IMG/VR virus record: IMGVR_UViG_3300025151_000021
Source of the DNA: an uncultured virus (IMG/VR IMGVR_UViG_3300025151_000021)
Lineage: Duplodnaviria; Heunggongvirae; Uroviricota; Caudoviricetes
DNA length: 64,000 nucleotides
Strand: one strand, 5' to 3'
The position numbers were made by a program, and so were the translations under genes. This document shows, one piece after another, positions 320 through 22,941 of this stretch. Numbering within the stretch: the stretch's first letter is position 1; each line of letters starts with the position of its first letter. Under the pieces are notes generated by a model. It made no database searches, had not been told where the DNA came from, and worked only from the letters and a program-made list of their open reading frames with translations.

Positions 320-847
320 ATGTCGTGGTTCACATTATTGAAGAATGACCGAATGAAAGAACAAATCAATAACATCAAAGAACTCATTGCAGATTTTAAC
401 TCCGAAGTATTAGACATGGAAGATAAGTTAGAAATAATGCTTGAAGAAATCTACACTCAAGTAGAAAATCTAGAAGACAGGGACGCTACTGAAGAAGCAA
501 AACAGTTGACTAGAACTGATATAGGTCGATTCTTCTTGGATGCGGATTTCAACGAATTGATTGAGTTGATGGAAGTTGCCTACGAAGAAAGCATGGAAGA
601 TGAAGACGAGGAAGACGTTGAACCAGCACGAATGCCTAATGAAAAGGTAGAGGAGATTCTCAATAATGCCGAAGACTTGCTTCCTGAGATAGAGAAGGAA
701 GGTGGGAAGTTCTTGGCTCGGCAGGTAGAAGAGATGGTATCTATAGCAAGGAAAAAACCAGAGAGAGCAAGGTCTCTTGCGAGAGCATTAGCAATGCAAA
801 TCAAAACTGTAAATGAAATTAAAGGTACTAACTTGAAGGTGGATTAA
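320..847 (+). CDS. Acidic helical protein with SW-leader (MSWFTLLK); putative internal head protein
   Basis: Shared N-terminal motif; E/D-rich, coiled-coil-like body. Confidence 0.7.
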   Translation: MSWFTLLKNDRMKEQINNIKELIADFNSEVLDMEDKLEIMLEEIYTQVENLEDRDATEEAKQLTRTDIGRFFLDADFNELIELMEVAYEESMEDEDEEDVEPARMPNEKVEEILNNAEDLLPEIEKEGGKFLARQVEEMVSIARKKPERARSLARALAMQIKTVNEIKGTNLKVD

Positions 848-848
848 G

Positions 849-1058
849 GTGAGTTGGAAAGACATTCTAAAGGAAGATTCTCTTGAGTCAAAGATTCTAA
901 GAGAGATTGAGAAAGAAGGTGGTGCTTTAGGTATGAAGAACTTGAAGCAGTTTGCTGATGAAGATAAATTGAAAGAAGTTCTATCTAGCATGGAAAAAGA
1001 AGGTAAGATATTCATGCACAAGGATGGAGACATCTACACACATGAGCCAAAGAAGTGA
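849..1058 (+). CDS. Small winged-helix-like protein with SW-leader (MSWKDILK)
   Basis: GTG start; ILREIEKEGG..LKEVLSSMEKEGKIFMHKDGDIY pattern resembles a wHTH. Confidence 0.6.
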   Translation: MSWKDILKEDSLESKILREIEKEGGALGMKNLKQFADEDKLKEVLSSMEKEGKIFMHKDGDIYTHEPKK

Positions 1059-1063
1059 TTAAG

Positions 1064-1519
1064 ATGAGTTGGCAAGATATAGTGAAGAAGAATCCCTTTC
1101 CTAAAGAAACCGAAGGTAATTACAGAGGAAAAGAACCCGCTACTGCCGAAGGCAGATACGGAACTAAAGTCACACCTAAAGACATAGAAAGAGAAATGGA
1201 AGAAAGAAGAAAAGAAGATGAAGATTTAAGGAGACTTCTAGAAGAACAAGATGTTGTCAAAAGGGTTGGGCCTACTAGGGTAAGAATGTTCTATAATGCG
1301 AAGAGAAGACAATCTAGCACTAATGAACATCTTAAGAGAATTGAAAGGAAACTCGATGAGTTGTATAAGGAACTAGAGGTGTTAGATGGTAAGGATGTTG
1401 CTGATATTTCTGATGAAAGTTTAACAGAGGAAATGTTAGAGAAACTTAACCTTCTAGGTTATGCTGAACTTGAATTACAGTCGATATCTAATGCTTTGGA
1501 GTTAGGTAAAACCTCTTGA
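1064..1519 (+). CDS. Hypothetical protein with SW-leader (MSWQDIVK)
   Basis: Start moved to ATG 1064, after GTGA and at the motif. Confidence 0.65.
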   Translation: MSWQDIVKKNPFPKETEGNYRGKEPATAEGRYGTKVTPKDIEREMEERRKEDEDLRRLLEEQDVVKRVGPTRVRMFYNAKRRQSSTNEHLKRIERKLDELYKELEVLDGKDVADISDESLTEEMLEKLNLLGYAELELQSISNALELGKTS

Positions 1520-1567
1520 GTTTTTGGAAATGTCTTTAGTCCACAGTATATTCAGGAGGTTCAGGTT

Positions 1568-1753
1568 GTGTCATCAGAATCGGAATCTTCTTGGTTTAAT
1601 TTACTGCGAATGGCTGGCGCAGTTACCACAACTTCCAGCCCTGCGTTATTCAATGTAAGTTACGGGGGAGGAAAGAAACATGGCAAAAAAACCCGTAAGA
1701 AAAGGCGCAAGGATGACGATTCGACTCAAAAACGGAGGCCGTTTAAGGTCTAG
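1568..1753 (+). CDS. Small basic protein with near-N-terminal SWFNLLR motif
   Basis: GGAGG upstream; K/R-rich tail; overlaps next ORF by 74 nt. Confidence 0.5.
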   Translation: MSSESESSWFNLLRMAGAVTTTSSPALFNVSYGGGKKHGKKTRKKRRKDDDSTQKRRPFKV

Positions 1754-2884: not shown

Positions 2885-2885
2885 G

Positions 2886-3071: not shown

Positions 3072-3080
3072 GTGAGTAAG

Positions 3081-3488
3081 ATGGGTTGGGAAAATATATT
3101 GAAAAGAACCAAACTATCTGTGATTGTTGGATTTGAAAGAGATAAGTTTGCTGAAACCAAATCGAAAGAACGACCCAATACAGCATCGGAAATGAATAAA
3201 CATAAATTGTTCATGCAAGGAAAACAAATTAATCAACTCATAAAAAATAGAAAAAGACCAGTTTCACTTGATGTTTTATTCAATGACCCTAATGAGATTA
3301 CTGACGAAGAAGGAGATGTTTGGTATTGGCCGGGGTTTTTGGTTAAAGAGAAAGCATTCTTTGACGAAGAAAAACCCAACCTTGAACTAAACCAAATCAA
3401 TAAGAGGTGGCTGGATAAACTACTTTCAGATATTAAAAACTTGGATTTAGAAGGCACTAAGATAATATCAGAGATTGGAGAATATTAA
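3081..3488 (+). CDS. Hypothetical protein with leader variant (MGWENILK)
   Basis: ATG 3081 after GGTGA; looks more AT-rich than its neighbours. Confidence 0.65.
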   Translation: MGWENILKRTKLSVIVGFERDKFAETKSKERPNTASEMNKHKLFMQGKQINQLIKNRKRPVSLDVLFNDPNEITDEEGDVWYWPGFLVKEKAFFDEEKPNLELNQINKRWLDKLLSDIKNLDLEGTKIISEIGEY

Positions 3489-3489
3489 G

Positions 3490-4146
3490 ATGATTACGAG
3501 AAAGCGTTGTCCTCTCTGTATGCATGAGGATAGGAGTCAACTTGAGGCTGATTTGGAAGCCATGAGTTACTCGGCAGACGCTTTAGACCAACAGATGAAC
3601 TGGAAGAGTGGAACTACCTCACGACATCAGAGGAATCACATGGGAGCGTATGTGGAATCTGCTAACCCAAGTTGCAAGATGTGTACGCACCCTATGAGAG
3701 CGGAGTTGGAGGAGCAGATTCACAGTGGGGAGATGAGTCCATTGACTGCTTCAAGAATAGTAGAATGCACAGAGGACCAAGTTGTTCGTCATGTAGATAA
3801 ACATCTTAAGCCAGTTGTGCAGAAGTCTGCTGCAAATATGATTGCTAAGAAGGAGATTGATGAGATTGAGACTCTTAGTGTTAACGTGCAAAGATTGGAG
3901 CAGAAGATTGACAGTTTGTTTGCAGAGGATTCCACTGACCCGAAGTACATTGACTCGTTGACCAAGTTAGCGAAAGAGGTTCGTGAGTCTCTGAAGTATT
4001 TGCTAGAGTTCAAGGGCAAACTGGTGCATAAGAGGCAAGACACTATCATCGTTCATCAGATGCAAGTCATCAAGGAGGTTCTAGCGCAGAATCATCCTGA
4101 TGTTTGGTTGGATGTCAGAAGTAAGATGGAGGAGAAATTACAATGA
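3490..4146 (+). CDS. Tandem CxxCxH zinc-finger/HTH protein; candidate terminase small subunit
   Basis: CPLCMH..RHQRNH and CKMCTH..RHVDKH repeats followed by a coiled coil; upstream of TerL. Function inferred. Confidence 0.55.
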   Translation: MITRKRCPLCMHEDRSQLEADLEAMSYSADALDQQMNWKSGTTSRHQRNHMGAYVESANPSCKMCTHPMRAELEEQIHSGEMSPLTASRIVECTEDQVVRHVDKHLKPVVQKSAANMIAKKEIDEIETLSVNVQRLEQKIDSLFAEDSTDPKYIDSLTKLAKEVRESLKYLLEFKGKLVHKRQDTIIVHQMQVIKEVLAQNHPDVWLDVRSKMEEKLQ

Positions 4147-4292
4147 GTTGGTTTGATATCATTAAAAGAACTGGTAAATCAAAAGGGACTGGTTTACGAG
4201 GTAGAGGATACAAGCCTCCTAAAGATTCAACTTCAAGAAGGAAGGAAGATGAGAAGGAGATTTTAGAACCTGAGTTGGAGGAGTTACAATGA
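4143..4292 (+). CDS. 49-aa protein with SW-leader (MSWFDIIK), absent from the ORF track
   Basis: ATGA overlaps at both ends; MSWFDIIKRTGKSKGTGLRGRGYKPPKDSTSRRKEDEKEILEPELEELQ. Confidence 0.7.
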   Translation: MSWFDIIKRTGKSKGTGLRGRGYKPPKDSTSRRKEDEKEILEPELEELQ

Positions 4293-4738
4293 GTTGGAAA
4301 GATACACTGAATAAATCAGACATTAGAAAGTCTGAGCAGATAAGGTGGGAGATGGACCGAAGAGATGTTTCTGTATTTCTGAAGAATGCTCCTGATGAAA
4401 AAACAATTGGGGATGTTGGTGAGACAGTTGGTAGATGCATCGTAGAAGGTGCGTTTCAGGCTGACATCAGAACTTGGGGAGTGAAGGGCGTTGGCTCTTA
4501 CGCCACTAGCGTTGAGTTAGACTTTGAATACATAGTCTATGAAAATGAAACTGGTGATGAAGAGGAGATTGTTCCATACGAGATAGAGTTTGATGCTGAT
4601 AAGTTGAGCAATAATATGCCAACTTCTGAATCAGCATTGAATCCCTCTGATGTCACAATCTACATTGACATGAAGAATCAGAGAGACAAGGAGCAGTTCG
4701 AGATTAGTGGAGACTTTGAGTGGCAGGGTTCGTATTAG
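4289..4738 (+). CDS. Acidic protein with SW-leader (MSWKDTLNK)
   Basis: Shared motif followed by SDIRKS. Confidence 0.7.
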   Translation: MSWKDTLNKSDIRKSEQIRWEMDRRDVSVFLKNAPDEKTIGDVGETVGRCIVEGAFQADIRTWGVKGVGSYATSVELDFEYIVYENETGDEEEIVPYEIEFDADKLSNNMPTSESALNPSDVTIYIDMKNQRDKEQFEISGDFEWQGSY

Positions 4739-4746
4739 GTGATGTA

Positions 4747-6450
4747 ATGACATGGTTCAATATCCTCAAGGAACAGGAAGTGAAGCCTGAACCTGTAAGG
4801 GCTGTTGCTCCTAAGACGATAAAGAAACAGGAGTTAGATATTCTTCAGTTCAAGATGGGAACTGACAGGTACAAGATTCTAGATGCAACAGAATCAGAGG
4901 AGAGTCTCGATAAACTGGTTGCTGAGAACAGCGTGGATGGAGTAGTCAAGCCTCGCTTCCAACAGGAAATCGAGTTTGTCAAGAGGTATCTGAGAAACGA
5001 TACAATCACCCAACGTGGAAAGGAGTATAAGACTCTGAGAGAAACGCTGACTCCTACTGAGTCTGATAAGATGGCAGACATGCTTGATAAGTTTCAGGCA
5101 AAAAGAGCCAGTAAAGGAAATGTTCGTGGGGAACAAAATGCTAACTTCAAGCAACTGATAGATAAAGAGGACTTTGACAGTCTTATGGAGTTACTAGAAA
5201 AACCTATGGTTTTGAGTAGATTCAGAACCTTCATCTCTAACAGTGAGAACAAGGAACTCAGAGACAAGGTTATGCAGAGCAACAACGAGCAACTTGTGAT
5301 GCTCTTGTCAGAGGGAGAGGATGCGTTTCCATCAATAGACTATACTGCGTCAATCTCAGGGAATCAGATAGAGAAGTACCTGAGATACATCATCATAGAG
5401 ATAAATGACAGGAGAAAGATTGAGTTCATAGACTTGGAGAAAGCCAAGAGGTCAGGTAAGGCAATGCAGGTTCTGTTTGGAACCAATAGAATGTACCCTG
5501 CTTTCGAGTTCATCTTGGAGAACAAGTCATTCGATACATCAGATATGCTGGCGACTCAAATGACTACTGCCAGTTCAGTTGTGAGCAGGACAGTTGCGAA
5601 CAAGAAATTGATTGATGCCCTGAAGAGAGGGGAAGTAAGAGGAAGGTTGCAAGAGATGTATAGTTCAAGACTTCCCATTGAAGAAGATGAAAATAGGAGT
5701 GAGAAAGAAGCAGTCGAAAATCAAAAAATAAATGATAAATTTAAACAGGCTAGGGAGAAAGGTGACAAGTCGGTTCTAGATGCCCTGAATGAAGAGGCTC
5801 CTACTGAGGTCAAGGAATTCAAGAACTCACTCATAGAGACAGAGTACACTATGCTACTTAGTGACATAGAGGATGATGATGTGGAAGAGGTCAACGAGCA
5901 GTTGGGAACTCAATACGACAATGATGGTTTCGAGAAAGTCAAGGGCAAACTAATCGAAGCAGTGAGAGAACTCATTGCAGGTAATGAGAATAGGGCGGAT
6001 GAGAAGTTCAAGGAGTTGAGTGTCAAGGGACCATCACTCAGTAGGTCGCATCCCTTTGATGATGAGAACTTCACAAGGGAGTACCTTCTAGGTGGTGGCT
6101 TCGGTGCTTCGACATCCTCACCTGCTGATATCGTAAAGATTCTACAGAGGCTTTCGACGCTATTCGCTAGTGGGGCTTTGAAGAAGAGCGAGATAAGAAA
6201 ATACTTCACGGACTTGGAGAATGCAGAGGATGAGGAATCAAAGTTGGAAGTCAAAGACAAATTTCTAGATGAAGTCAGAGATGACTACGAGAATGCAAGA
6301 GGACAGTTCCTTGAAGCCGTTGAGGACAATATGCGGAGAGTTCTGAAGGAAGGCACTAAGTTGGGTATCACTGTTAGGAGACAAGGCAGGGACTATGACT
6401 TTCGTGAGCCTTACATGTTTCTCAGAAAGTTATTGAGTATTAAGGGGTGA
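4747..6450 (+). CDS. Large hypothetical protein with leader (MTWFNILK); putative internal virion protein
   Basis: ATG 4747 after GGTGA RBS begins the motif. Confidence 0.75.
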   Translation: MTWFNILKEQEVKPEPVRAVAPKTIKKQELDILQFKMGTDRYKILDATESEESLDKLVAENSVDGVVKPRFQQEIEFVKRYLRNDTITQRGKEYKTLRETLTPTESDKMADMLDKFQAKRASKGNVRGEQNANFKQLIDKEDFDSLMELLEKPMVLSRFRTFISNSENKELRDKVMQSNNEQLVMLLSEGEDAFPSIDYTASISGNQIEKYLRYIIIEINDRRKIEFIDLEKAKRSGKAMQVLFGTNRMYPAFEFILENKSFDTSDMLATQMTTASSVVSRTVANKKLIDALKRGEVRGRLQEMYSSRLPIEEDENRSEKEAVENQKINDKFKQAREKGDKSVLDALNEEAPTEVKEFKNSLIETEYTMLLSDIEDDDVEEVNEQLGTQYDNDGFEKVKGKLIEAVRELIAGNENRADEKFKELSVKGPSLSRSHPFDDENFTREYLLGGGFGASTSSPADIVKILQRLSTLFASGALKKSEIRKYFTDLENAEDEESKLEVKDKFLDEVRDDYENARGQFLEAVEDNMRRVLKEGTKLGITVRRQGRDYDFREPYMFLRKLLSIKG

Positions 6451-8945: not shown

Positions 8946-9431
8946 ATGGCAGATATAGAGATAAAAGAGGTATCTCAAGAAGATGCTATCTTTATGTGGA
9001 ACAGAGATAATCCAAATGACCCATTCTCAAGAAGCGCACCCTCTTGGTATGACATACAGAACTGGTTAGTCAGAACCAACGATGGCGAGGTTGTTGGAAT
9101 CGCTGGCTACACAGATATGGGAGACTATGCTATCCTTGGTGGTATGAAGGCTAGAGGAAAGGACCAACCGAAAGGTGGGGGGAACTGGAAGGCAATGTTA
9201 ACCTACAGAAAGGGTAAACTTGGCAACAAGCCGAAGATAGCAGGGTTTCGTGCAACGAAGATGCCACAGGACAAGTGGACTGCTATGAATGAGAAAGCAG
9301 GATACCAGCGTGAGGATATGATGGGTATTCCTGAAGAACTGGTAGACAAGTTTCGTCAGCGTTATGGAGATGATTGGGGCATAATGAAGAACACATCATG
9401 GTTCTTCCCATTGATGAGGGGGTTAATCTAA
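8946..9431 (+). CDS. GNAT-fold acetyltransferase-like protein
   Basis: WLVRTNDGEVVGIAGY...AILGGM..R...PKGGG pattern resembles GNAT beta-strands and the acetyl-CoA loop. Confidence 0.45.
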   Translation: MADIEIKEVSQEDAIFMWNRDNPNDPFSRSAPSWYDIQNWLVRTNDGEVVGIAGYTDMGDYAILGGMKARGKDQPKGGGNWKAMLTYRKGKLGNKPKIAGFRATKMPQDKWTAMNEKAGYQREDMMGIPEELVDKFRQRYGDDWGIMKNTSWFFPLMRGLI

Positions 9432-10864
9432 TGGAGATGGATAACTTAGATTTCATGTCATCTATGGATATGGAACTCTCAAAGAACTCCTTCCCTTACT
9501 TTTTCAAAAACGTGCTAGGAATGATGTATCCTGAGTACATGCAAGAATGGCTACAGTCTATGGAGACAACAGACAGGACAGTTATCATTTGTAGCAGAGA
9601 CCACGGAAAGTCAGTATTCATGCATAGTTGGGTAGTTTGGAATCTCATATTTCAAGAGCCTCCTTTTCAAATGCTATACATCTCATCTAACCAAAAGCAG
9701 ACTCTAGTTCATATGAGGGAGATTGATAGATACTTCAACCTACCAGCATTAAAACAATTCAAGCCTAGTCGTGGATGGGCAATCGGTAATATTCAACTCA
9801 CCAACGGCAATGCGATTCTAGAGCGTTCCGTTGGTTCTCAGATTCGTGGCCTTCACCCACAGGAGATTATCATTGACGACCCCTTGAAAGAGTTCAGCCT
9901 TGCTGGTATTCAGAGAGTTACTGATTGGTTCTTCGGTGATATGATTCCTACATTGCATCACACATCTAAACTAAGGATGATTGGCACTCCCTTCACTTAC
10001 ACTGATATCTTTTCACAATTAGAAGAGAACGAGGCATACACTGTGACAAAGTATCCATGTCTCAATGCATTGAACGAACCTCTTTGGCCTGAGCGTTGGG
10101 ACTTCGATGCACTCATGCAGAGGAAGGCAGAGATAGGTTCTCTGAAGTTTACAAGAGAGTATCTGTGTGTACCAATATCAACAGGCACTGCGTTATTCAA
10201 TCCTGAGTTCATAGAGAAATGCAAGAACAAAGAGTATATTCTGAAACTAGGAAACCGAAAGGACAAGGGATACAGATACTACGTTGGTGTTGACCCTGCT
10301 ATCTCAACCGATGGTGACTACAACGTTATTACAGTTTTAGAGGTAGATGAGAATCAGAACAAGGCAATCGTTCATGTTGATAGGGCAAAGAACATTGAGT
10401 TTAGAGAGAACATAGAAAAAATTAGATTGATTGGTAAGGTGTTTGAACCGGAGGAGATTCTGTTTGAGACTAACACATTCGCAAAGGCATTTACTCAAGA
10501 GTTGAAGAACATGACAGACCTAAACATTAGAGACTTCAATACGACTAGAAGAAAGAAACAAGAGATAATTCTAAATCTTCAAATGAATATTGAGAATCAG
10601 AAGATAATCATGCCGTATGGTGACAATGCAAGCAGAAGGCTAACCAGTGCCTTGATAGAAGAACTTTCAATGTTCTCAATTACTGCTAGTGGAAAGTTCG
10701 AGGGAGTAGGCGCACATGACGACTTGGTTATGAGTTTAGCACTAGCCAATGCAGCATCACAAGGAACGGGAGAACAGTTCGTTTTGCTTGATGACATGGA
10801 CATCTTTGATGAACCGGCCACTGTTCGGAAGAACATGTCGGGTGTCCTCGGCTTAAATTTTTGA
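9431..10864 (+). CDS. terL: Terminase large subunit
   Basis: Walker A-like SRDHGKS, Walker B IIIDD, MIGTP coupling motif, nuclease VGVDPA and HDDLVMSLALA. Confidence 0.95.
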   Translation: MEMDNLDFMSSMDMELSKNSFPYFFKNVLGMMYPEYMQEWLQSMETTDRTVIICSRDHGKSVFMHSWVVWNLIFQEPPFQMLYISSNQKQTLVHMREIDRYFNLPALKQFKPSRGWAIGNIQLTNGNAILERSVGSQIRGLHPQEIIIDDPLKEFSLAGIQRVTDWFFGDMIPTLHHTSKLRMIGTPFTYTDIFSQLEENEAYTVTKYPCLNALNEPLWPERWDFDALMQRKAEIGSLKFTREYLCVPISTGTALFNPEFIEKCKNKEYILKLGNRKDKGYRYYVGVDPAISTDGDYNVITVLEVDENQNKAIVHVDRAKNIEFRENIEKIRLIGKVFEPEEILFETNTFAKAFTQELKNMTDLNIRDFNTTRRKKQEIILNLQMNIENQKIIMPYGDNASRRLTSALIEELSMFSITASGKFEGVGAHDDLVMSLALANAASQGTGEQFVLLDDMDIFDEPATVRKNMSGVLGLNF

Positions 10865-10873: not shown

Positions 10874-12247
10874 TTGAGCGAAAAAGGGGATAAATTGAGG
10901 GAGCAAGCAGAACTCAATAATCGTAGAGCAGACCTTGCTGATGAGGAGGATGCAATCGAACAACAGCAAAAAAGAATCACCAGTGAACTAACTCAAAAAT
11001 GGTTGGCTACACAGCCAATCTCAAATCACACAGACATAGAGAAGAGGTTTGCAGAGGAGCATAGGCTAACACTTTCTGATGCAAGGAAACATCTTGGATT
11101 CGAGATGAAGAAATATCAGATTGAAGGAAAGGACATACCTGCTCTTGTAAAGGAACTCAAAGTCTATCGTAGAAGCCTGAAAGGAGAGGACAAGATTTCC
11201 TTAACTAAATCCATATCAAATCTAATAGGTTCCTACTCAGACCACCTGAGTAAAAGCATAGACAACATCTATTGGATAAACAAGTACAAGAGTCCACTTT
11301 TGGATATGGGTTTCAATGAGGAGAAAATAATCAAACTGTCTCTTGTCACAGACGAAAGCACTAGAAGAGACATCATAGATACACTATGCAAGTATTGGGA
11401 GGATAGGATAGAGAGGAATGGACTAGGATTCAATTCTGATTATGCTAGACTAACAAAAAGCATGAGTGATAGCAAGAGAGAAATCAGAAACATCCTCAAT
11501 AAGTACATTGAGTCAAGTGGTAATGGAAACGTAGGCCAAAAGGAAATACTCAAGAGAAAGATAGTGACGATGGTTTGTGAAGAGCAGGGTATTTCTCCTC
11601 GACAGATTTACGACAGACTTCCCAAGAATATGATGAAGAACTCATCTCCTAGCATGATATCTAAACTAGCGAAGTCTCAGAATATAACAAACGTAAATGG
11701 TTCATTATACAAGATGAGTGATGAGATAAAGAAGGACATCTATGCCTACACTGCTGCATTCATAGACTCTGATGGATACATCACGATGGATAAGAACCAC
11801 AATCCGAGAGTGGGGTTGGTTGCGACAGGAGATAGAGGCAAGGCATTCATGTTGGAGATGAAGAAGTCTCTAGGGATTGGTAGACTACACCTAGACCAAA
11901 AATCACCGCAGGACACCAAGCCAATAAACAGACTGAACTTCTACTCACAGGCTGAAGTCACAGAACTCCTAACGAAGTGCCTCCCACATTTCAAACTAAA
12001 GAGAAAGAACGCAGATATACTTCTAGAACTAATGAGGATGAAGAAGAGCCACAAAAAGGCTGGATGGTACAAGGCTAGAAAGGTTGAGTTGTTCAAACTC
12101 ATGAAGTACGAAAACCACAAAGACGATAAAAACTATGATTTCAGCAAATATGAAATTGACATCGATACCGTGGCTAAATACTACGAAAACGGAAAGATGT
12201 CTGAAATGGATAAATTAGAATCTATAGCAAAGAACGAGGACGAATAA
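10874..12247 (+). CDS. Protein with a C-terminal LAGLIDADG homing-endonuclease domain
   Basis: AYTAAFIDSDGYI motif; LLTKCLPHFKLKRKNA typical of single-motif LAGLIDADG proteins; long unrelated N-terminus. Confidence 0.8.
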   Translation: MSEKGDKLREQAELNNRRADLADEEDAIEQQQKRITSELTQKWLATQPISNHTDIEKRFAEEHRLTLSDARKHLGFEMKKYQIEGKDIPALVKELKVYRRSLKGEDKISLTKSISNLIGSYSDHLSKSIDNIYWINKYKSPLLDMGFNEEKIIKLSLVTDESTRRDIIDTLCKYWEDRIERNGLGFNSDYARLTKSMSDSKREIRNILNKYIESSGNGNVGQKEILKRKIVTMVCEEQGISPRQIYDRLPKNMMKNSSPSMISKLAKSQNITNVNGSLYKMSDEIKKDIYAYTAAFIDSDGYITMDKNHNPRVGLVATGDRGKAFMLEMKKSLGIGRLHLDQKSPQDTKPINRLNFYSQAEVTELLTKCLPHFKLKRKNADILLELMRMKKSHKKAGWYKARKVELFKLMKYENHKDDKNYDFSKYEIDIDTVAKYYENGKMSEMDKLESIAKNEDE

Positions 12248-12248: not shown

Positions 12249-13895
12249 ATGGTAGAAGAAAAAAGACCCTCGTTGTTTCAGCGATTAACTCGTAGAACAA
12301 CACCAAAGCCTGAAGACAGAACGATATACAATCCGGGGATACAAGAGAAAGACACCTCCTATCTAGTGACTGCTCCTATTGTATACCACATAACATATCA
12401 GTCAGTGATAACTAGAACTTGTATCACGCAACTGAAGAATGAGATATTCAGAAGAGGATACGTTTGGGAGGAGAAGTTCACCAGTAGGTGTGGAGATTGT
12501 GGTAATGAACACAAGCAAGCAGTGAAAGAATGTGTTGACTGTGGTAGTATGAATCTAATTAAGCCTGATAAAAACCAACTCAAATACATTCACAAGTTAC
12601 TAGATGGATATGTGAACAAAGGCGAGCAGTTGTTCATCGACGTACTCAAAGAACTAGAGGATGACCTCAATATAATGGATGATGCTTACCTCATAATGGT
12701 CAAGGAATACTACGTTGATGGGAACGGAGATATTCGTATGCATCGAATTAAGGAAATCTACAGGGGAGACCCTGTATCCATGCACATCTATGCTGATGAG
12801 AATGGTGAGAGAGGAAATGAGGGATACACCTGTTTGACTCATAGAGGTCATATCAGTAAGAGCATGAGTGACTCCTGTGAAATATGTGGTGCTGAATTGC
12901 ATCCAGTGCATTATGTTAACAGAGCCAATGGCAAAGAGCAAGCATTCATCGAGGGAGAAGTTCTGCACTTTAGCAAATACTCACCTTCTAGATTGTATGG
13001 TAGGTCTCCGATAATGACCCTTTGGAATCACATAACGACTCTAATATCAATGGAGAACTATGTCAACTCCTCATACACAAAGGCTAGAATGCCAAGGGGA
13101 ATACTAGCAGTGCAAACTAGAAACATGGAATCGATGAAGTCATTTTGGCGTGGTGTCAAGGAGAAGATGGAGCAAGACCCACACTTCATTCCAGTTATGG
13201 GTATAGAGGGTGAAGGAAAAACCGGAGCCGTAGAATGGATTAAGTTCATGGACAGCCTAAAGGAGATGGACTACATACAGGTCAAGGATGACCTAAGAGA
13301 TAGAATAGCAGCCTTCTATGGAGTAAGCAAAATCTTCATGGCAGACAATTCAACCAGTGGAGGTCTGAACAATGAGGGAATGCAGATACTCGTAACCAAC
13401 AGAGCAGTTGAGATGGCACAGACAATTTGGAACAACTATGTGTTCCCATTCATGACAGAGGAGTTTGGCATTACAGATTGGGTGCTAAAACTTCCACCAT
13501 CAGAGGAAGAGGATGAGATTGCCAAACTAAGGAAGAGAGAGATTGAAGTCAATGTGGCAGCGTCAATCAAGAATCTTGGGTTTGAGGTTGATATGGATGA
13601 TGAGGGTAGATTTACTTTCACTAAACCTGAACCACAAGAAAGCGAACAAGGTCCATCGAGAGAAGGCGGAGATAAAGTTGAGACTGACCCATACGCTGGA
13701 ACAGACATAGATGCAAGTCAATTAGGTCAGTTGCAAGAGCAACAATTGATGGCTGCAAGCAAACCACAAGAGAACCCACCTGCAACTAGGAACAAGCCAT
13801 CTATGGAGACTGGACCTGATAAGAGGTTTTCAGGACTACCTAGAGAAGCAGGTAATCAGAATGTTGATTCACGAACAGAGAGGAGAGTAGGTTAA
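12249..13895 (+). CDS. Portal protein with zinc-ribbon insertions
   Basis: Position after TerL; LYGRSP, IAAFYGV and GGLNNEG portal-like motifs; CxxC pairs CGDC/CVDC and CLTH/CEIC. Confidence 0.9.
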   Translation: MVEEKRPSLFQRLTRRTTPKPEDRTIYNPGIQEKDTSYLVTAPIVYHITYQSVITRTCITQLKNEIFRRGYVWEEKFTSRCGDCGNEHKQAVKECVDCGSMNLIKPDKNQLKYIHKLLDGYVNKGEQLFIDVLKELEDDLNIMDDAYLIMVKEYYVDGNGDIRMHRIKEIYRGDPVSMHIYADENGERGNEGYTCLTHRGHISKSMSDSCEICGAELHPVHYVNRANGKEQAFIEGEVLHFSKYSPSRLYGRSPIMTLWNHITTLISMENYVNSSYTKARMPRGILAVQTRNMESMKSFWRGVKEKMEQDPHFIPVMGIEGEGKTGAVEWIKFMDSLKEMDYIQVKDDLRDRIAAFYGVSKIFMADNSTSGGLNNEGMQILVTNRAVEMAQTIWNNYVFPFMTEEFGITDWVLKLPPSEEEDEIAKLRKREIEVNVAASIKNLGFEVDMDDEGRFTFTKPEPQESEQGPSREGGDKVETDPYAGTDIDASQLGQLQEQQLMAASKPQENPPATRNKPSMETGPDKRFSGLPREAGNQNVDSRTERRVG

Positions 13896-13896: not shown

Positions 13897-14286
13897 ATGA
13901 AATATAGACCAAAAGGCTCACCAAGAAAAAACAACCGTAAACCGAAAAAAATGTCAATGAACGATTGGCTTTTCTTCACTCAAACAGATAGAAATAATCT
14001 ATCTCCTGAAGATAAAAGCAGGATGCGTGATATAGAAATTGAATATGAGAGGTATCACAGAGAGAATCCTATTGCAAAATCTTGGCAGGATGTTTTGAAG
14101 AGAAAGAAAAAGAAGAAGTCTACCGTTAATCAGGCTGGTAACTATACCAAGCCCGGAATGAGAAAGAGAATGTTTCAGAGAATCAAAGCAGGTGGCAAGG
14201 GTGGCGCACCCGGTCAGTGGTCTGCAAGAAAAGCACAGATGCTTGCTCAAAGATACAAGAAAGCAGGTGGTGGCTATCGAAACTAA
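13897..14286 (+). CDS. Basic protein with internal KSWQDVLK motif
   Basis: C-terminal GGKGGAPGQWSARKAQMLAQRYKKAGGGY resembles a small basic domain of marine viruses (from memory). Confidence 0.7.
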   Translation: MKYRPKGSPRKNNRKPKKMSMNDWLFFTQTDRNNLSPEDKSRMRDIEIEYERYHRENPIAKSWQDVLKRKKKKKSTVNQAGNYTKPGMRKRMFQRIKAGGKGGAPGQWSARKAQMLAQRYKKAGGGYRN

Positions 14287-14605
14287 AAGTTGGGTCTCGA
14301 TACTAAAGAGGTCTAACCCAAGAATACCACGAAAGAAAGGACAGAGGAGAAACTCAAAGAAGCACTCAGACTTGTACACGGATGAAAACCCAAAGGGAAC
14401 AATACACGGATTAGGATTCAAAGACGAAGAGACATCAAGAAAATCAGTAGCAAAGATAAGGAGAAGCAATAGAAGTCATGCGCATAAGACACAGGCTGCA
14501 ATAGCAATGGAGCAAAGAGCAAGAGAAATGGGCAAGACAAAGGAAGCAGCGATATACAGGAAGTTCATAGAGCAACAGAAGAAAAAGACGGAGGCTAAGA
14601 AATGA
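14270..14605 (+). CDS. Basic protein with KSWVSILK motif and HSDLYTDENPKGTIHGLGFKD domain
   Basis: Probable GTG start at 14270; K/R-rich. Confidence 0.65.
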   Translation: MAIETKSWVSILKRSNPRIPRKKGQRRNSKKHSDLYTDENPKGTIHGLGFKDEETSRKSVAKIRRSNRSHAHKTQAAIAMEQRAREMGKTKEAAIYRKFIEQQKKKTEAKK

Positions 14606-14871
14606 GTTGGTTTGATTTTCTAAAGGCTAAGTCAAAGTCTCAGAGGTCTCTGTCAACTTGGACAGACGAGGAGTGGGGTAGCGCAGAGCAACATCGTGCC
14701 AAAGAGAAGGGAAAGAAAGCACCTTCCAAGACAAAGGGCAGGTACATGCCAAAGGCCACTTACAAAAGAACCCCTAAATCTAGGTTGAAGTATCAAGATA
14801 GAAAGAAGAAAGCAGGTCGTAGAAAGGGCAAGCAACATGTCCCAACAGGAAAGAAGTTCTCTCAGAAGTGA
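14602..14871 (+). CDS. Small basic protein with SW-leader (MSWFDFLK)
   Basis: ATGA coupling; K/R-rich. Confidence 0.7.
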   Translation: MSWFDFLKAKSKSQRSLSTWTDEEWGSAEQHRAKEKGKKAPSKTKGRYMPKATYKRTPKSRLKYQDRKKKAGRRKGKQHVPTGKKFSQK

Positions 14872-14876
14872 TTATC

Positions 14877-15299
14877 ATGCCGATTCGTAAAGTCAAGGGA
14901 GGATACAAGTGGGGCAGTAAAGGTAAGGTCTATCGCAATCGAAAGGATGCTGAGAGACAGGCCGCAGCAGCCTACGCTTCAGGCTACAAGAAGTCAATGG
15001 ATTGGTTTGATACACTAAAGAGAGAGAAGCATCCTGCTTTGAAGAGAGCCGGGGTGAGTGGTTTCAGCAAACCAAAGAGAACACCAAACCACCCCACTAA
15101 GTCTCATATTGTTGTTGTTAAAGACGGTAAGAAAGTCAAGACTATTCGATTTGGACAACAAGGTGCTGATACAGTAACTGAGAAGAACCCAAAGGGAAAG
15201 AGAAAAAAGAAGCAAGCCTCGTTCAAGGCTAGACATGCCAAGAACATCAAGAGAGGAAAGACATCTGCTGCTTATTGGGCCAACAAGGTAAAGTGGTGA
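14877..15299 (+). CDS. Two-domain basic protein with internal MDWFDTLK motif
   Basis: MPIRKVKGGYKWG domain, then motif, then KTIRFGQQG..SFKARH..SAAYWANKVKW domain. Confidence 0.7.
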   Translation: MPIRKVKGGYKWGSKGKVYRNRKDAERQAAAAYASGYKKSMDWFDTLKREKHPALKRAGVSGFSKPKRTPNHPTKSHIVVVKDGKKVKTIRFGQQGADTVTEKNPKGKRKKKQASFKARHAKNIKRGKTSAAYWANKVKW

Positions 15300-15303
15300 T
15301 AAC

Positions 15304-15831
15304 ATGAGTTGGTTCGATATTCTAAAGATGAAGTTCAATGTTCCCTCTAGAAAGATTAAGTTCGATAACGAAGGTGAACTTGAAGAGGTTCGTAAAGCCG
15401 TTAAAGAGGCTAGATTATCAGAGGCTGATTTGAAAAGATTCGATGACAGTGCTATCAAGGCTGTTGCAGATATAGTCGGTGAGGATGATGACGATTATGA
15501 TGACCTTTCCAATGACATAAGAGAATATGTGAAGAAAGAAAAAGAGAAGCACAACAGGAAGAGACCATTTGAGATAGACCCATCTGTTAGAAATGTAAAG
15601 TTCAAGACAACTACTATGGATACACCTTCTTATCCTAGTGGTCACGCTCTTGCAGGATACGTTATGGCGCATGTTATGGCTGATAAGTATCCTGAGAAAA
15701 GAAAGGAACTGTTTTCTACCGCAGACGATGTGGCTCATAGCAGGATGCAGATGGGGGCGCACTATCCGACTGATTTGAAAGAATCTGAAAGACTATCAAA
15801 ACTAATATTTGAGAAACATCTAAAGGACTGA
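15304..15831 (+). CDS. Soluble PAP2-family phosphatase / vanadium-haloperoxidase-like protein with SW-leader (MSWFDILK)
   Basis: All three PAP2 motifs: KEKHNRKRP, YPSGH, SRMQMGAHYPTD. Confidence 0.9.
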   Translation: MSWFDILKMKFNVPSRKIKFDNEGELEEVRKAVKEARLSEADLKRFDDSAIKAVADIVGEDDDDYDDLSNDIREYVKKEKEKHNRKRPFEIDPSVRNVKFKTTTMDTPSYPSGHALAGYVMAHVMADKYPEKRKELFSTADDVAHSRMQMGAHYPTDLKESERLSKLIFEKHLKD

Positions 15832-15835
15832 TAAA

Positions 15836-15955
15836 ATGAATTGGAAAGACACACTGAAGAAGAAACTTGTTGGTGGACAGAAGAAACTGGACAAGGATAA
15901 GGATGGAGACATAGACGCAGAGGATTTCAAACAATTAAGGGAGGAAAAAGAATGA
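15836..15955 (+). CDS. 39-aa EF-hand-loop microprotein with leader (MNWKDTLK), absent from the ORF track
   Basis: MNWKDTLKKKLVGGQKKLDKDKDGDIDAEDFKQLREEKE; DxDxDGxID Ca-binding loop; ATGA overlap with next gene. Confidence 0.75.
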   Translation: MNWKDTLKKKLVGGQKKLDKDKDGDIDAEDFKQLREEKE

Positions 15956-16187: not shown

Positions 16188-17171
16188 ATGGATAGCACAT
16201 TCTTCGATGTACTTCGCAAGAGTGTGCCTGTTGAGAAAGCAAAGACTGCTAATCAATTAAATGAACGTAACTATCCAAAAGACGTTCAGGCGTTGATAGA
16301 AATACTCAGGAAGTTTTCTAGAACCAAAACGGTCAAAGACGAGTTTAGTGGAAGAGACAAAGAGATTCCATATTACAATGTTGACGATTCTAGTGTCAGA
16401 GATATAGTGCAAAAATTCAACACAGAAATAGGTCCAAGACTAGACGAACTGACAACGACTGTCAGAAGAGCAGAGGCAATAAAAGACCCATTGAAGAGAA
16501 GGAGAAGATTCAATATGCTATCGGGTGGAAGATACACTGATGTATTTCTTGCTGACGATGATGAGTTTTTGAAGTATGGTAGCAAACCTGCAAACGAGAT
16601 ATACTTGGACTTAATTACCGAACTAAGTGCATCTAGGTCAGGTGAAAATCTATCAGAGCAACAATACAGAAGAATGGTGGAGTATAATAATAAAATCAGA
16701 GATGTGTTTAGCCAGCCAAATCAAATCGTGAAGAAACTCAATGATGATATCGACAGTGGAACTCTAGATTTTGAAAAGAGTGAAGAAAGATTGAAAGATG
16801 TTTTCGCACTTGTTGCAGAAGACCTTGAGGAGTACAAGCAATTGCAAAAGGAGACCGGATTCAAGGGTCAGGAGTTCGTTCTTGCAACGGGCTTCGATGG
16901 AGGACTGTCCAATGACATCCGAGAGGCGGTTGATTTTGTTAACAAAGCATATTCGTTTGTAAGTAAGATTGCTAGAGGCACTGAAACTTCTGATATTGAA
17001 GTAGAGGAAGGACAAGAGCAATTGAGGGGGATTTTACAAGAGGATACCTCTATGGTTGTTAGGGCAAAAAACACTTTGAAGATGTTTGATAGATTCATCA
17101 AAGATGCTAAAATAAAAAATCACACTTTTTCTCTTCCTGATGGTGATAATATCAAAATAACATTAAACTGA
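16188..17171 (+). CDS. Hypothetical helical protein with leader variant (STFFDVLRK)
   Basis: ATG 16188 after GGTGA. Confidence 0.7.
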   Translation: MDSTFFDVLRKSVPVEKAKTANQLNERNYPKDVQALIEILRKFSRTKTVKDEFSGRDKEIPYYNVDDSSVRDIVQKFNTEIGPRLDELTTTVRRAEAIKDPLKRRRRFNMLSGGRYTDVFLADDDEFLKYGSKPANEIYLDLITELSASRSGENLSEQQYRRMVEYNNKIRDVFSQPNQIVKKLNDDIDSGTLDFEKSEERLKDVFALVAEDLEEYKQLQKETGFKGQEFVLATGFDGGLSNDIREAVDFVNKAYSFVSKIARGTETSDIEVEEGQEQLRGILQEDTSMVVRAKNTLKMFDRFIKDAKIKNHTFSLPDGDNIKITLN

Positions 17172-17189
17172 GGTACACTGGGGTTGAAC

Positions 17190-17522
17190 ATGATGTCGTG
17201 GCAGGAAATTCTAAAGGCATCTGATTTTCTAGAGAAACTAGAGCCAAAACAGAAGAAGAGAATAAAGAAACTTCTGCAAGCAACACAACCCACAAAGAAC
17301 ATGGGGGATGAGATGACCAAGTTAGAGGAAGTCATCAAGGAGATGGAAAGTTTAGACATGGTGAAGAGCGACAAGGCTCTGACAAAGAAAGTAAAGTCCT
17401 TCCGTGAGAAGAACCTAGACATACTCGCAAGTGCTGCCGAACTTCGTAAAGACTATCAAACGCTCTATGACCAAATCAGAAGCATAGCATATCCGAAGGG
17501 CGAGAAGGAGGAGAAGGAATGA
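17190..17522 (+). CDS. Coiled-coil protein with SW-leader (MMSWQEILK)
   Basis: Shared motif. Confidence 0.7.
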   Translation: MMSWQEILKASDFLEKLEPKQKKRIKKLLQATQPTKNMGDEMTKLEEVIKEMESLDMVKSDKALTKKVKSFREKNLDILASAAELRKDYQTLYDQIRSIAYPKGEKEEKE

Positions 17523-17589: not shown

Positions 17590-18162
17590 ATGAGTTGGTT
17601 TGACTTAATAAAACTGGATTATAATCCAGATAGTGAGGCTAATCTACCTAGAGAAATATACGACTCTCTTGAAAGACTAGACGAAATAGAAAATGACTAT
17701 TTCAGAAATAAAGATGAAATCGATTACGAGATATACGAGATATGTGATAAGTTGCTTGACTTTGTAAAAAATGATGCAAGGTTGCAAAGTGAGCCAAAGG
17801 AAAGAGATACACTATTAAGAATAGTTAAAGAACATCAAAAGAAATCAGTTTCCGATGGACACTTTGAGACAGTATATCACTATTTCACAGATACTTATGA
17901 TGATTTGAAAAATAAGGAGGAGGATGATGATGATTTTTCCCCAAAATACGGAAGTAAAAATAGAAAAGCAGTTGAAGCAATGCAATCCTTTCAAGACCAA
18001 TATTATGAAAACCCATATTCTGATTACAGGGAGAATAGAGACCTAACTGCTTTCATAGCAGGAGTAAGCAACGGTGAGCCTTTATCAGACTTAGAAAGGA
18101 AATTCCCCGGAGCATACATCGTCTTCGATAGTGCTGGATTATTGAACGAGGTGGAAGAATGA
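17590..18162 (+). CDS. Acidic protein with SW-leader (MSWFDLIK)
   Basis: GGTGA RBS; shared motif. Confidence 0.7.
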   Translation: MSWFDLIKLDYNPDSEANLPREIYDSLERLDEIENDYFRNKDEIDYEIYEICDKLLDFVKNDARLQSEPKERDTLLRIVKEHQKKSVSDGHFETVYHYFTDTYDDLKNKEEDDDDFSPKYGSKNRKAVEAMQSFQDQYYENPYSDYRENRDLTAFIAGVSNGEPLSDLERKFPGAYIVFDSAGLLNEVEE

Positions 18163-18341
18163 GTTGGTTTGAAACACTAAAGGGAAGTTGTGGCACAGAG
18201 AAGTCAGATGAGATGGCAAGAGTTACAACGACAGCCTCTACCGGACAAGACAAAGAAGCGGCCAAGAGGACTGAGGATAAAGAAGCAGAACTACTGGCTA
18301 TGATACGAGAGCGAAACAAAAAAGCGAGGGAAAGCAAATGA
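18159..18341 (+). CDS. Small protein with SW-leader (MSWFETLK)
   Basis: ATGA coupling; shared motif. Confidence 0.7.
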   Translation: MSWFETLKGSCGTEKSDEMARVTTTASTGQDKEAAKRTEDKEAELLAMIRERNKKARESK

Positions 18342-18568
18342 GTAAGAAAGAAGAGAAAAATGAAATGCTACTACTAATGAAAGAACTTGTGAACAAGGTC
18401 AATGCCTTGGAGCAAGCAGTATACAACAAGGACAACCTTCTGATGAAATCAGGATACGTTGTTCGTGAGACACCAAGACCCGCAATGGGTAACATTGACA
18501 CACCTGATGGTGGAACAATGTCATGGGATGAGATTCGCAAAATGGCGGAAAAAATGGAGGGGAGATAA
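18338..18568 (+). CDS. Small coiled-coil protein ending in MSWDEIRKMA; scaffold-like
   Basis: C-terminus parallels that of the protease/scaffold (MSWGDIHNLA). Confidence 0.65.
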   Translation: MSKKEEKNEMLLLMKELVNKVNALEQAVYNKDNLLMKSGYVVRETPRPAMGNIDTPDGGTMSWDEIRKMAEKMEGR

Positions 18569-19060: not shown

Positions 19061-19073
19061 ATGAGGGGAATAC

Positions 19074-21656: not shown

Positions 21657-21663
21657 CGAGTAG

Positions 21664-21672
21664 TTCATATAG
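21664..21672 (+). promoter_or_regulatory. Possible TATA-box promoter of the protease/capsid operon
   Basis: TTCATATAG-like element about 25 nt upstream of the GTG start, in one of the few intergenic gaps; spacing fits a leaderless archaeal transcript. Confidence 0.3.
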
Positions 21673-21693
21673 TAAAAGATAATTCCTTTTGTA

Positions 21694-22941
21694 GTGTTTG
21701 CACCGCAGGAGGTTTTGATTAAGCAGGAAACTGATACTGGTTTCACCATATTAAAGTCAGAAGAATTGACAATTGGGGGCTATGCATCAATAGAAGTAGT
21801 AGACAAGCAAAATGACTTGATTACACTAGAAGCATTAGAAAAAGCAGTAGCAGAATTCATGGAGAAGAAGTCTTATCGAAATGTAATGTCAAACCATTCA
21901 AATGTTCAGGTCGGGGAGGTAGTAGAGCAATATCGAGATACTAACGGGGTATTACACAAGACAGGTGTTGACAACGTTGGGTTCTATGTAGTTATCAAAA
22001 TGAGAGATGACATAGAAAAGGCAAAGGAAATCTCAAGAGGTATTAGAAAAGGAACTCTACGGTCTTTCAGTATAGGTGGACAAGCAATATCAAAGAAACA
22101 AAGAACATCGGAGGAATACGGGGAATACAACGAGATTGATAGTCTTGAACTACATGAAGTAACAATCTGTGAGAAAGGAATAAACCCCGAAGCAAAATTC
22201 GACATATTAAAACACGAAAATGGAGGTGATAATTTGTCAGAAAAGTTAGAAAGCGCACTGGAAGAGTTGAATGGTCTGCTAAAGCAGGTTCAGGAAGCAA
22301 CTGGTGCAACAATTGAAACAGAAAATGTTGTAAAAGAAGAAATGGATGAAAAAATGATGGAAGACAAAATGGAAGAGGACAAAATGATGTCCGAGAAGAT
22401 GGAAGACGACGAGAAGATGATGTACGACAAAGAAGAAGTCGAGACAATGGATGACGAAACCAAGGCTCTCGATGAGGATTCTACCCGTGATTATCAAGCC
22501 GGAGAAACCATCGTCAGTGGTGGAAAGCCTGTAGGAACCCCTGCACAACTTAGCGTTGCAAAGGGTCTAGAAGGCTCGGACTTCACTACACTTGACCTCT
22601 CCCATGAGAACGTTGAGAAGGCATACGAGCAGTACAAAGCCGAGCAGTTGGAGAAGTTGGCATACGACAGTCTCTCCAAGCAGTTCGAGTCTCGATTTGC
22701 TTCAGAGATGGCAGTAAAGAAGTCGGCGGCTGAGAAAGCCGAGTACGACGCAAGAACTGAAGTCTCTGTACTCAAAGAGGAGTTCGCTGAACTCCGAAAG
22801 GCTCTCACTGAGAGAGACACAGAAATTCGCAAGGCTGCTGAAGTAGCAATGGAGTTACCCGAAGGTTTCCCAACCACACCTGATGCTGTGGCTGAGATGT
22901 CTTGGGGAGACATCCACAACCTTGCAAGGAGAGTGAACTAG
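21694..22941 (+). CDS. Prohead (maturation) protease fused to scaffold
   Basis: GGYASIEVVDKQNDLI, MSNH, RSFSIGG, LHEVTICEKGINPEAKF (HK97-type protease); acidic Met-rich linker and coiled-coil C-terminus; directly before the capsid gene. Confidence 0.92.
   Translation: MFAPQEVLIKQETDTGFTILKSEELTIGGYASIEVVDKQNDLITLEALEKAVAEFMEKKSYRNVMSNHSNVQVGEVVEQYRDTNGVLHKTGVDNVGFYVVIKMRDDIEKAKEISRGIRKGTLRSFSIGGQAISKKQRTSEEYGEYNEIDSLELHEVTICEKGINPEAKFDILKHENGGDNLSEKLESALEELNGLLKQVQEATGATIETENVVKEEMDEKMMEDKMEEDKMMSEKMEDDEKMMYDKEEVETMDDETKALDEDSTRDYQAGETIVSGGKPVGTPAQLSVAKGLEGSDFTTLDLSHENVEKAYEQYKAEQLEKLAYDSLSKQFESRFASEMAVKKSAAEKAEYDARTEVSVLKEEFAELRKALTERDTEIRKAAEVAMELPEGFPTTPDAVAEMSWGDIHNLARRVN

Follow-up and report, generated by a model that had tools for sequence, protein, structure and literature searches.

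A short peptide shared by the scaffold tail and many small head-arm proteins of a magrovirus-type archaeal virus: a candidate procapsid-targeting tag

The stretch of DNA analysed here, called the window below, comprises 64,000 nucleotides of an uncultured tailed virus (IMG/VR record IMGVR_UViG_3300025151_000021). Its first 23 kb carry an array of mostly small genes whose products, otherwise unrelated, have in common an eight-residue peptide with the consensus [M/I/L/V]-S-W-x-[D/E/N]-[I/T/V]-[L/I/V]-K. This peptide, hereafter the tag, mostly stands at the N-terminus, sometimes lies inside the protein or at its end, and has a counterpart in the C-terminal helix of the viral prohead protease-scaffold. 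All the long genes from position 1 to ~58.7 kb are carried by the + strand, and their identities were assigned with Pfam and PHROGs (Table 1). In the tagged block, the intergenic gaps do not exceed ~90 bases and many start codons overlap the stop of the gene before; on account of this tight packing, the tagged genes can be described as a single array with the terminase, portal, protease and capsid genes. Moreover, Shine-Dalgarno-like words (GGAGG or GGTGA) precede most of the tag copies, which argues that the tagged starts are real starts.

The tag was searched for with a loose protein pattern, [M]-S-W-x-[DEN]-[ITL]-[LIV]-K, in the six frames of the 64 kb. Among the 24 matches obtained, 20 are in-frame copies on the + strand, located between 323 and 22900, and the remaining four consist of two out-of-frame matches on the + strand (20456 and 22397) and two matches on the - strand, in frames containing stops. 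With the same pattern, no copy is found in any gene from 24 to 64 kb, the + strand genes that extend to 58.7 kb included. At the DNA level, the pattern RTGNNNTGGNNNRANNNNNTNAAR occurs 13 times, for 0.12 occurrences expected, a number that was reached in none of 100 shuffles. A first-pass annotation of this DNA, made from its letters alone, had listed 14 N-terminal copies, together with further copies near the N-terminus, inside proteins, at the C-terminus and in the scaffold. The 14 copies do lie at the starts that it gave (the N-terminal entries of Table 1), and all the others were present on re-scanning. The tag had also been described as missing from the tail and replication genes, and in the window it is found neither in these nor in the terminase, portal, endonuclease, ligase and capsid genes. 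The proteins of the tagged block with recognisable non-cargo roles (terminase, endonuclease-like, portal, ligase, capsid) are, in other words, all untagged. The functions first proposed for the tagged bodies fared unevenly: the PAP2 phosphatase passes the Pfam cut-off, the EF-hand stands in part (its score is below the cut-off, while the loop is canonical), and the winged helix-turn-helix has no family match. Most tagged bodies have no match in Pfam or PHROGs, and the Atlas search gave no usable match for the 567-residue tagged protein or for an untagged protein of 828 residues. Besides the tags and the scaffold tail, the sole other S-W-x-D-I in a long open reading frame (ORF) of the window belongs to an untagged 161-residue protein encoded directly upstream of the terminase gene (8946-9431), which has P-S-W-Y-D-I-Q-N at residues 33-40.

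Table 1. Tagged genes and other assigned genes of the window (lengths in amino acids, aa; pI, isoelectric point)
Feature	Coordinates	Strand	Tag or related motif (coordinates)	Place of motif	Remarks
175 aa, acidic	320-847	+	M-S-W-F-T-L-L-K (320-343)	N-terminal	pI 4.4
69 aa	849-1058	+	(M/V)-S-W-K-D-I-L-K (849-872)	N-terminal	GTG start
151 aa	1064-1519	+	M-S-W-Q-D-I-V-K (1064-1087)	N-terminal
Small basic ORF, 61 aa, putative gene	1568-1753	+	S-W-F-N-L-L-R (1589-1609)	from residue 8	overlaps start of ORF 1680-2795; reality as a gene uncertain
371 aa	1680-2795	+	L-S-W-R-E-I-I-K-V-R-R (2760-2792)	C-terminal
61 aa	2886-3071	+	M-S-W-K-D-I-L-K (2886-2909)	N-terminal
135 aa	3081-3488	+	M-G-W-E-N-I-L-K (3081-3104)	N-terminal
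49 aa	4143-4292	+	M-S-W-F-D-I-I-K (4143-4166)	N-terminal
149 aa, acidic	4289-4738	+	M-S-W-K-D-T-L-N (4289-4312)	N-terminal
567 aa	4747-6450	+	M-T-W-F-N-I-L-K (4747-4770)	N-terminal	without known family
Large terminase	9374-10864	+			untagged, inside tagged block; Pfam/PHROGs
Endonuclease-like gene	10874-12247	+			untagged, inside tagged block; phrog_5046 'HNH endonuclease', E 2e-6
Portal	12249-13895	+			untagged, inside tagged block
Basic, 129 aa	13897-14286	+	K-S-W-Q-D-V-L-K (S at 14080)	internal	pI 10.9; post-tag body phrog_17747
Basic	14192-14605	+	variant K-S-W-V-S-I-L-K (14285-14308)	near N-terminus	true start uncertain; body phrog_727
Basic, 89 aa	14602-14871	+	M-S-W-F-D-F-L-K (14602-14625)	N-terminal	33% Lys+Arg; body (residues 9-89) phrog_14910
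Basic, 143 aa, two modules	14868-15299	+	M-D-W-F-D-T-L-K (14997-15020)	between modules	phrog_31267 (residues 4-48), phrog_7595 (residues 53-143)
Soluble PAP2-superfamily phosphatase, 175 aa	15304-15831	+	M-S-W-F-D-I-L-K (15304-15327)	N-terminal
39 aa, one EF-hand-like loop	15836-15955	+	M-N-W-K-D-T-L-K (15836-15859)	N-terminal	Pfam match below cut-off
331 aa	16176-17171	+	variant T-F-F-D-V-L-R-K (16197-16220)		F replacing W
109 aa	17193-17522	+	M-S-W-Q-E-I-L-K (17193-17216)	N-terminal	most widely kept tagged gene
190 aa, acidic	17590-18162	+	M-S-W-F-D-L-I-K (17590-17613)	N-terminal
60 aa	18159-18341	+	M-S-W-F-E-T-L-K (18159-18182)	N-terminal	23 members in related loci
76 aa	18338-18568	+	M-S-W-D-E-I-R-K (18518-18541)	near C-terminus
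ATP-dependent DNA ligase gene, 860 aa	19074-21656	+			untagged; between tagged genes and protease
S78 prohead protease-scaffold, 415 aa	21694-22941	+	F-D-I-L-K (22198-22212); M-S-W-G-D-I-H-N (22897-22920)	junction; C-terminal helix	long C-terminal extension
Major capsid protein, HK97-type family	22942-24303	+
Tail tube protein	31556-33136	+
ERCC4 and PD-(D/E)XK nucleases	right end	-			Pfam/PHROGs

The prohead protease-scaffold (Pfam PF04586, 37.2 bits for a cut-off of 21) combines an S78 domain with a helical scaffold region, and ends in a short conserved element behind a flexible linker. In an AlphaFold2 (AF2) model of this protein, computed from a 37-sequence alignment, a folded protease domain (residues 23-172) is followed by long helices (179-241 and 304-385), a disordered proline-rich stretch (385-395) and a terminal helix (404-414), which begins at the tryptophan. 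In 56 of 57 distinct protease-scaffolds, the motif [MILV]-S-W-x-D-[IL]-H stands 12-16 residues before the C-terminal end, the last one having S-W-G-E-L-H, and the core common to the tag and to this tail is thus Met/hydrophobic-Ser-Trp-x-Asp-Ile. Contigs of the only RNA run found, which covers a small share of the window, match it well only at 22794-23551 and 23853-23996, in the scaffold end and the capsid gene. These contigs give no expression levels, their other pieces are short and match poorly, and the missing cover on the tagged genes is uninformative.

The tag was then surveyed in 80 related loci (1.02 Mb, with the capsid gene on the + strand) plus the window, using a pattern anchored on the start codon. 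This yielded 170 copies on the + strand, vs four on the - strand. Once the first 12 residues were removed, BLASTP grouped the 164 bodies of 35 residues or more into 70 clusters. The peptide is a short terminal element common to unrelated proteins whose genes accompany those of the head, as is typical of the phage T4 capsid targeting sequence (CTS). The pattern leaves two positions free; in 142 non-redundant tags, these hold serine at position 2 (98 of the 142) and Q, E, F or K at position 4, and conservation past residue 8 is nil. Pfam searches covered 81 of the 141 bodies listed; two of these are PAP2 phosphatases, and 79 remain without a match at E<=1e-4. A Sec, Tat or class III signal peptide, or a membrane anchor, was considered and rejected, since the tag has only eight residues, including Asp and Lys, and none of 166 tagged proteins contains a membrane-like segment (19-residue window, mean hydropathy of at least 1.6). 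The family of the 17193 gene has a relative in 29 further distinct loci, with a linker between tag and body that ranges from 3 to ~30 residues. In the AF2 model of the 17193 protein, the tag is a short helix (residues 3-9; predicted local distance difference test, pLDDT, of ~68), in which, judging from the sequence, S-x-x-D would act as a helix capping box and Met1, Trp3, Ile6 and Leu7 would lie on one face. The tag position may also be kept when it is not N-terminal, as in the 1680 protein, whose C-terminal tag is present in the two relatives identified (92% and 50% identical).

Complete genomes give the same picture of a head-arm element. In four complete relatives, 12 of 12, 8 of 8, 4 of 5 and 8 of 8 pattern matches are located in the ~21-24 kb upstream of the capsid gene, on the same strand, whereas a fifth, more distant one has four scattered matches. 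A near-identical record of 84 kb has all of its seven tags in the head module, and none in its other ~70 kb. Directly behind the strand switch, and ahead of the tagged block, stand a few small untagged genes of the + strand. An untagged gene without a family match is among the few anchors conserved within this fast-changing block; it encodes a Cys-rich protein of ~220 residues starting with M-I-T-R-K-R-C-P-L-C (3475-4146 in the window, 15278-15934 in locus L083, 4774-5430 in L084). An IMG/VR record of 184,733 bases (L154) contains two exact tag patterns 300 bases apart (183177-183499); at ~2 times the usual magrovirus size, this contig possibly belongs to a larger relative, or else is chimeric.

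Magroviruses rank with the most abundant archaeal viruses in surface seawater, and the function of most of their genes is not known. The capsid protein of the window matches only those of the haloarchaeal siphoviruses HVTV-1, HCTV-1 and HCTV-5, and of viruses linked to methanogen lineages, with 25-30% identity. IMG/VR holds at least 596 relatives, including complete records of 92-101 kb, and a family B DNA polymerase is encoded on the opposite arm in the three complete-relative records checked. The capsid relationship, the genome size of ~100 kb, and the presence of a DNA polymerase and replication module of their own agree with the magrovirus description, in the sections of PMC5434244 that deal with these features. 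On this sequence evidence, the window is that of a magrovirus-type archaeal tailed virus, with Poseidoniales (Marine Group II archaea) as its putative host, by the published magrovirus description. A 164-residue protein encoded directly 3' of the capsid gene (24739-25233) has a SAP DNA-binding domain (PF02037, E 2e-11) at its C-terminal end. The ligase domain covers only residues 252-436 of the 860-residue protein, its flanks of 250 and 420 residues being without a family. In the tail region (37591-57234), giant ORFs of 2314, 2202 and 1905 residues cover ~20 kb, with almost no family matches.

More distant relatives provide information about the origin of the tag. Three records of 69-84 kb, from relatives with a capsid protein ~42-45% identical, have no tag match. 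Nevertheless, a [W/F]-x-x-V-H tail element is retained by the protease/scaffold in four of the six tagless relatives examined, which argues that the tail element is older and that the tags arose later, within this clade. Neither tags nor tail element are found in the other two: HVTV-1, whose head-module genes are untagged and whose scaffold has no S-W-x-D-I tail, and one other relative. As far as sequence comparison goes, the tags are derived copies of an older scaffold tail. A cellular source was also considered, using a narrow DNA pattern in which position 2 had to be AGT and position 5 had to encode Asp. In 185,579 cellular species genomes (596 Gb), this pattern gave 36 single, scattered matches, no locus with two of them, and no record with a Poseidoniales title, a number close to chance level by rough arithmetic; in IMG/VR, the same pattern is found in at least 135 stretches. 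A host origin of the tag was, therefore, rejected, within the reach of this narrow pattern.

These data bear on a first alternative, in which the motif recruits its carriers to a hub outside the virion, such as a host factor or a component of a viral factory or assembly site, and acts in the producing cell only, the likeness to the scaffold being due to co-localisation or chance. Amphipathic W-x-x-[IL] helices are common protein-binding motifs, and the tagged bodies, being small, orphan and fast-changing, resemble the proteins with which hosts are taken over. Nevertheless, the limitation of the motif to the head-module arm of complete genomes and its absence from their replication arm, together with a core identical to a strictly conserved scaffold element, fit poorly with a hub of this type. 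Moreover, as no clustering is seen in the cellular genomes, a host system using the tag is not evident. This explanation is considered unlikely.

The protease-scaffold resembles the tag at a second place. At the end of its protease domain, F-D-I-L-K is invariant in 57 of 57 scaffolds, with variable, disordered sequence directly after it; AF2 puts this junction at the edge of the domain, before a disordered linker. The tag ends in a similar way, and its conservation halts right after K8. In the capsid protein, for its part, residues 26-28 form a conserved hydrophobic-x-K, the K being found in 101 of 110 homologues. The motif could thus be no more than a place where the prohead protease, or a host protease, docks or cuts, with substrates that are trimmed or destroyed and are not virion cargo. 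This is, however, a poor prospect. The best-conserved residues of the tag, M-S-W, correspond to the terminal helix of the scaffold and not to the junction; the hydrophobic-x-K pattern is a short one, which tagless lineages have kept too; and it is hard to see why eight N-terminal residues would be trimmed if the tag had not acted first. The capsid N-terminus, M-S-G-Y-I-N-T-L-K, was tried as a tag-like cleavage site and rejected, being a family-wide N-arm motif that also occurs in tagless lineages.

The first-pass annotation had named conservation at the DNA level only as an outcome that would speak against a tag acting as a peptide. The conservation turned out to be at the protein level: at tag positions 5-8, synonymous codons vary about as in the background, which led to the rejection of DNA-only conservation, and both serine codon families are used for the tag serine in the window. 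Over 150 distinct tag DNAs, position-2 serine is nevertheless encoded by AGT in 98 of 103 cases, vs 24% in the background. Part of this bias can be attributed to the fact that AGC before TGG would create AGCT, a word with no occurrence in the 64 kb; the rest suggests a common origin of the tags, or a preference in the start context. In the window, GATC, AGCT and CGCG all have zero occurrences, for 295, 218 and 27.5 expected from trinucleotide counts, and the remaining four-base palindromes are just mildly depleted, which looks like the complete avoidance of a few restriction or methylation sites.

The AGT bias, the Shine-Dalgarno-like words and the variation between strains could together suggest that the shared stretch is mainly a nucleic-acid feature, serving as translation-start context or as homology for cassette swapping, with the peptide as a by-product. 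Strain contigs break off or rejoin right behind ATG-AGT-TGG at 4151 and 17598, and whole tagged genes are gained or lost between strains (15296-15829), the PAP2 gene being absent from one metagenome contig. Close relatives have different cassettes between the same anchor genes, and this is already the case for a 92%-identical relative, in which these cassettes are different tagged genes. Among the untagged genes of the block, the endonuclease-like one is also polymorphic among strains, 11943-12234 being swapped for 413 other letters in contigs of three metagenome runs. The nucleic-acid explanation is, however, very unlikely, as the codons of positions 5-8 and of the serine vary, AGC is excluded anyway via AGCT avoidance, the motif is kept internally, C-terminally and in the scaffold tail, where a start-site role is impossible, and 24 partly degenerate bases constitute a poor recombination substrate.

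The clearest view of how the tag is combined with its carriers is given by the four consecutive genes found after the portal gene (13897-15299), which encode very basic proteins (pI ~10.8-10.9, 28-33% Lys+Arg). Similar basic-protein loci are found at 1095-1930 in L266 and at 1513-1782 in L265. Hypothetical proteins of phages of Pelagibacter, Roseobacter, Puniceispirillum, Methylophilales and cyanobacteria (Synechococcus and Prochlorococcus) match the bodies of these proteins with 55-83% identity. In both of the phages examined, the homologues are tagless: Celeribacter phage P12053L, for the 14868-15299 protein, and Methylophilales phage MEP402, for the 14602-14871 protein. In MEP402, they belong to a cluster of small basic genes adjoining the terminase gene. 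As these homologues start without the tag, and as the PHROG profiles of the basic bodies start right behind it, the tag can be regarded as an add-on. Bodies in common with bacterial phages thus have it in this virus family alone, which is the one hint from nature that the peptide might suffice to bring a foreign protein into the head. Basic proteins common to an archaeal virus and to marine bacteriophages suggest either gene exchange across domains or an unusually conserved small DNA-binding module. The tag can also change position: in an allele shorter by 180 bases, found in three DNA runs from three studies, 13900 is joined to 14081 and the gene then starts, by codon reading, with M-T-W-Q-D-V-L-K, so that the internal tag of the 13897 gene is N-terminal elsewhere. 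It is hardly credible that the tag is a functionless remnant of one small ancestral gene, duplicated and with bodies diverged beyond recognition, because, even though the neighbouring copies 2886 and 3081 have upstream bases in common and the AGT bias fits a single source, several bodies are of independent origin, as judged from their tagless phage homologues, one is a PAP2 phosphatase and another has an EF-hand-like loop, and eight near-invariant residues in front of free sequence require selection on the peptide.

Precedents exist for short peptides that load proteins into viral shells, and these are taken here as functional analogues, not as homologues. In the tail of the HK97 maturation protease, in P22 gp8 and in 80alpha gp46, a short element at the extreme C-terminus binds the shell interior, and SaPI1 CpmB mimics the 80alpha gp46 element. 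In these systems, the element is carried by one or two proteins, whereas in magroviruses it has seemingly been copied onto ~70 unrelated families, mostly at the N-terminus. Encapsulins, which are DNA-free cell compartments, have a HK97-fold shell that loads cargo, usually of one or a few types, via a short terminal peptide. An encapsulin cargo-loading system was rejected for the window, where terminase, portal, prohead protease and tail tube are all present.

The closest analogue is the CTS of T4, which is described, in the sections of PMC3012670 devoted to it, as a short N-terminal peptide on diverse internal proteins, including basic and anti-restriction proteins, that targets them to the scaffolding core and thereby into the prohead. 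As at the polymorphic internal-protein locus of the T-even phages, a short peptide is the only conserved part of diverse, fast-changing small proteins, whose genes stand with the head genes. In T4, the gp21 protease cuts the CTS off at a defined site, while the receptor and the cleavage of the magrovirus tag are putative. Unlike the T4 CTS, the magrovirus tag copies the scaffold tail, is present on ~20 genes per genome, also occurs internally and C-terminally, and belongs to a virus with an archaeal host; the likeness would be one of function. In phage P1, an N-terminal signal of at most 30 residues from DarB is sufficient to carry a reporter into the capsid, and the cargo is delivered into the cell, according to the relevant sections of PMC9024508. 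No N-terminal consensus is given there for the Dar proteins, in contrast with the one sharp consensus of magroviruses over dozens of families.

Every point that can be tested by sequence comparison agrees with a modular tag mimicking the scaffold tail. The preferred reading, to which a probability of roughly 0.55 is given, is thus that a portable tag targets proteins to the procapsid by imitating this tail, and is possibly clipped after K8. From the modular loading tag put forward in the first-pass annotation, the shared core, the confinement to the head arm, the N-terminal, internal and C-terminal positions and the add-on character have been retained; capsid binding, presence in the virion and delivery are still inferred. 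The tag, carried by a large, fast-changing set of small soluble proteins, would direct them into the assembling procapsid in several steps. The tagged genes, which form a co-directional, tightly packed array, would be expressed together with the head proteins, as their order suggests. The tag would fold into a short capped amphipathic helix, with Ser as N-cap, Asp at N3, and Met, Trp, Ile and Leu forming one face, as proposed from the sequence and from an AF2 model of moderate confidence. It would then occupy the receptor of the scaffold C-terminal helix, whose core, M-S-W-x-D-I, is that of the tag. If other tailed viruses are a guide, this receptor is most likely the inner face or the N-arm of the capsid protein, which is presumed to bind both the scaffold tail and the tags. 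Once assembly is completed, the S78 protease may clip the tag after K8. This step is suggested by the resemblance of the tag end to the F-D-I-L-K junction, and by the arrest of conservation at K8, and it is put forward with some doubt, the odds being against it. Finally, the cargo might stay with the DNA and enter the host with it; this delivery is speculative, and the strong basicity of four of the cargo proteins would be in keeping with it.

Several observations weigh against this procapsid-targeting reading. In view of the AGT bias and of several strain-level breakpoints located at tags or next to them, shared descent and a role in recombination contribute to the tag pattern. The tagless relatives keep the junction stretch as G-F-[EQ]-V-L-K, and HVTV-1 has K-F-G-V-V-S-K, so that the likeness of the tag to F-D-I-L-K may reflect the protease fold and not a cleavage site. 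The receptor could be the scaffold core, the portal or the protease, and not the capsid protein, an alternative that is conceivable because the T4 CTS targets the scaffolding core. Position in the tagged block does not in itself mean that a protein is in the virion, since the DNA ligase and the endonuclease-like gene are also located there. Lastly, to our knowledge, twenty-odd cargo species per genome far exceed those of any characterised phage.

A bolder version of the procapsid-targeting reading can be formulated, which is held tentatively, at a little less than even odds. The capsids would be protein-delivery vehicles with the largest cargo repertoire known for tailed viruses, in which an eight-residue copy of the scaffold helix, reusing the initiator Met within the motif, loads any small soluble protein, and the last three residues constitute a release site for the head protease. 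The ~20 cargo genes per genome, drawn from at least 70 families and renewed by cassette turnover, would then form an injected arsenal for host takeover or counter-defence.

The main text of the magrovirus papers PMC5434244, PMC11706807 and PMC10160649 does not deal with any N-terminal motif, leader or scaffold tag, and particle proteomics is not mentioned there either. The full-text literature on magroviruses, capsid targeting sequences, scaffold and cargo targeting, and archaeal-virus cargo likewise gave no description of the tag, and the initial statement that no such system has been described for archaeal viruses holds within the literature searched. Four points are added by the present analysis: the bacterial-phage homologues, which are tagless, the tail element that tagless relatives show to be older, the allele in which an internal tag becomes N-terminal, and the AGCT avoidance that explains part of the codon bias. 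If the tag is a capsid-loading label, it would assign a location (the head) and a likely time of action (host entry) to ~1/5 of the genes of each genome. Capsid targeting sequences would then extend from a few model coliphages to archaeal viruses, with the copying of the scaffold's own tail as a route by which such a signal can originate, and a very short candidate encapsidation tag would become available for biotechnology. The cargo set, which differs even between 92%-identical strains, would be a place to seek archaeal counter-defence proteins.

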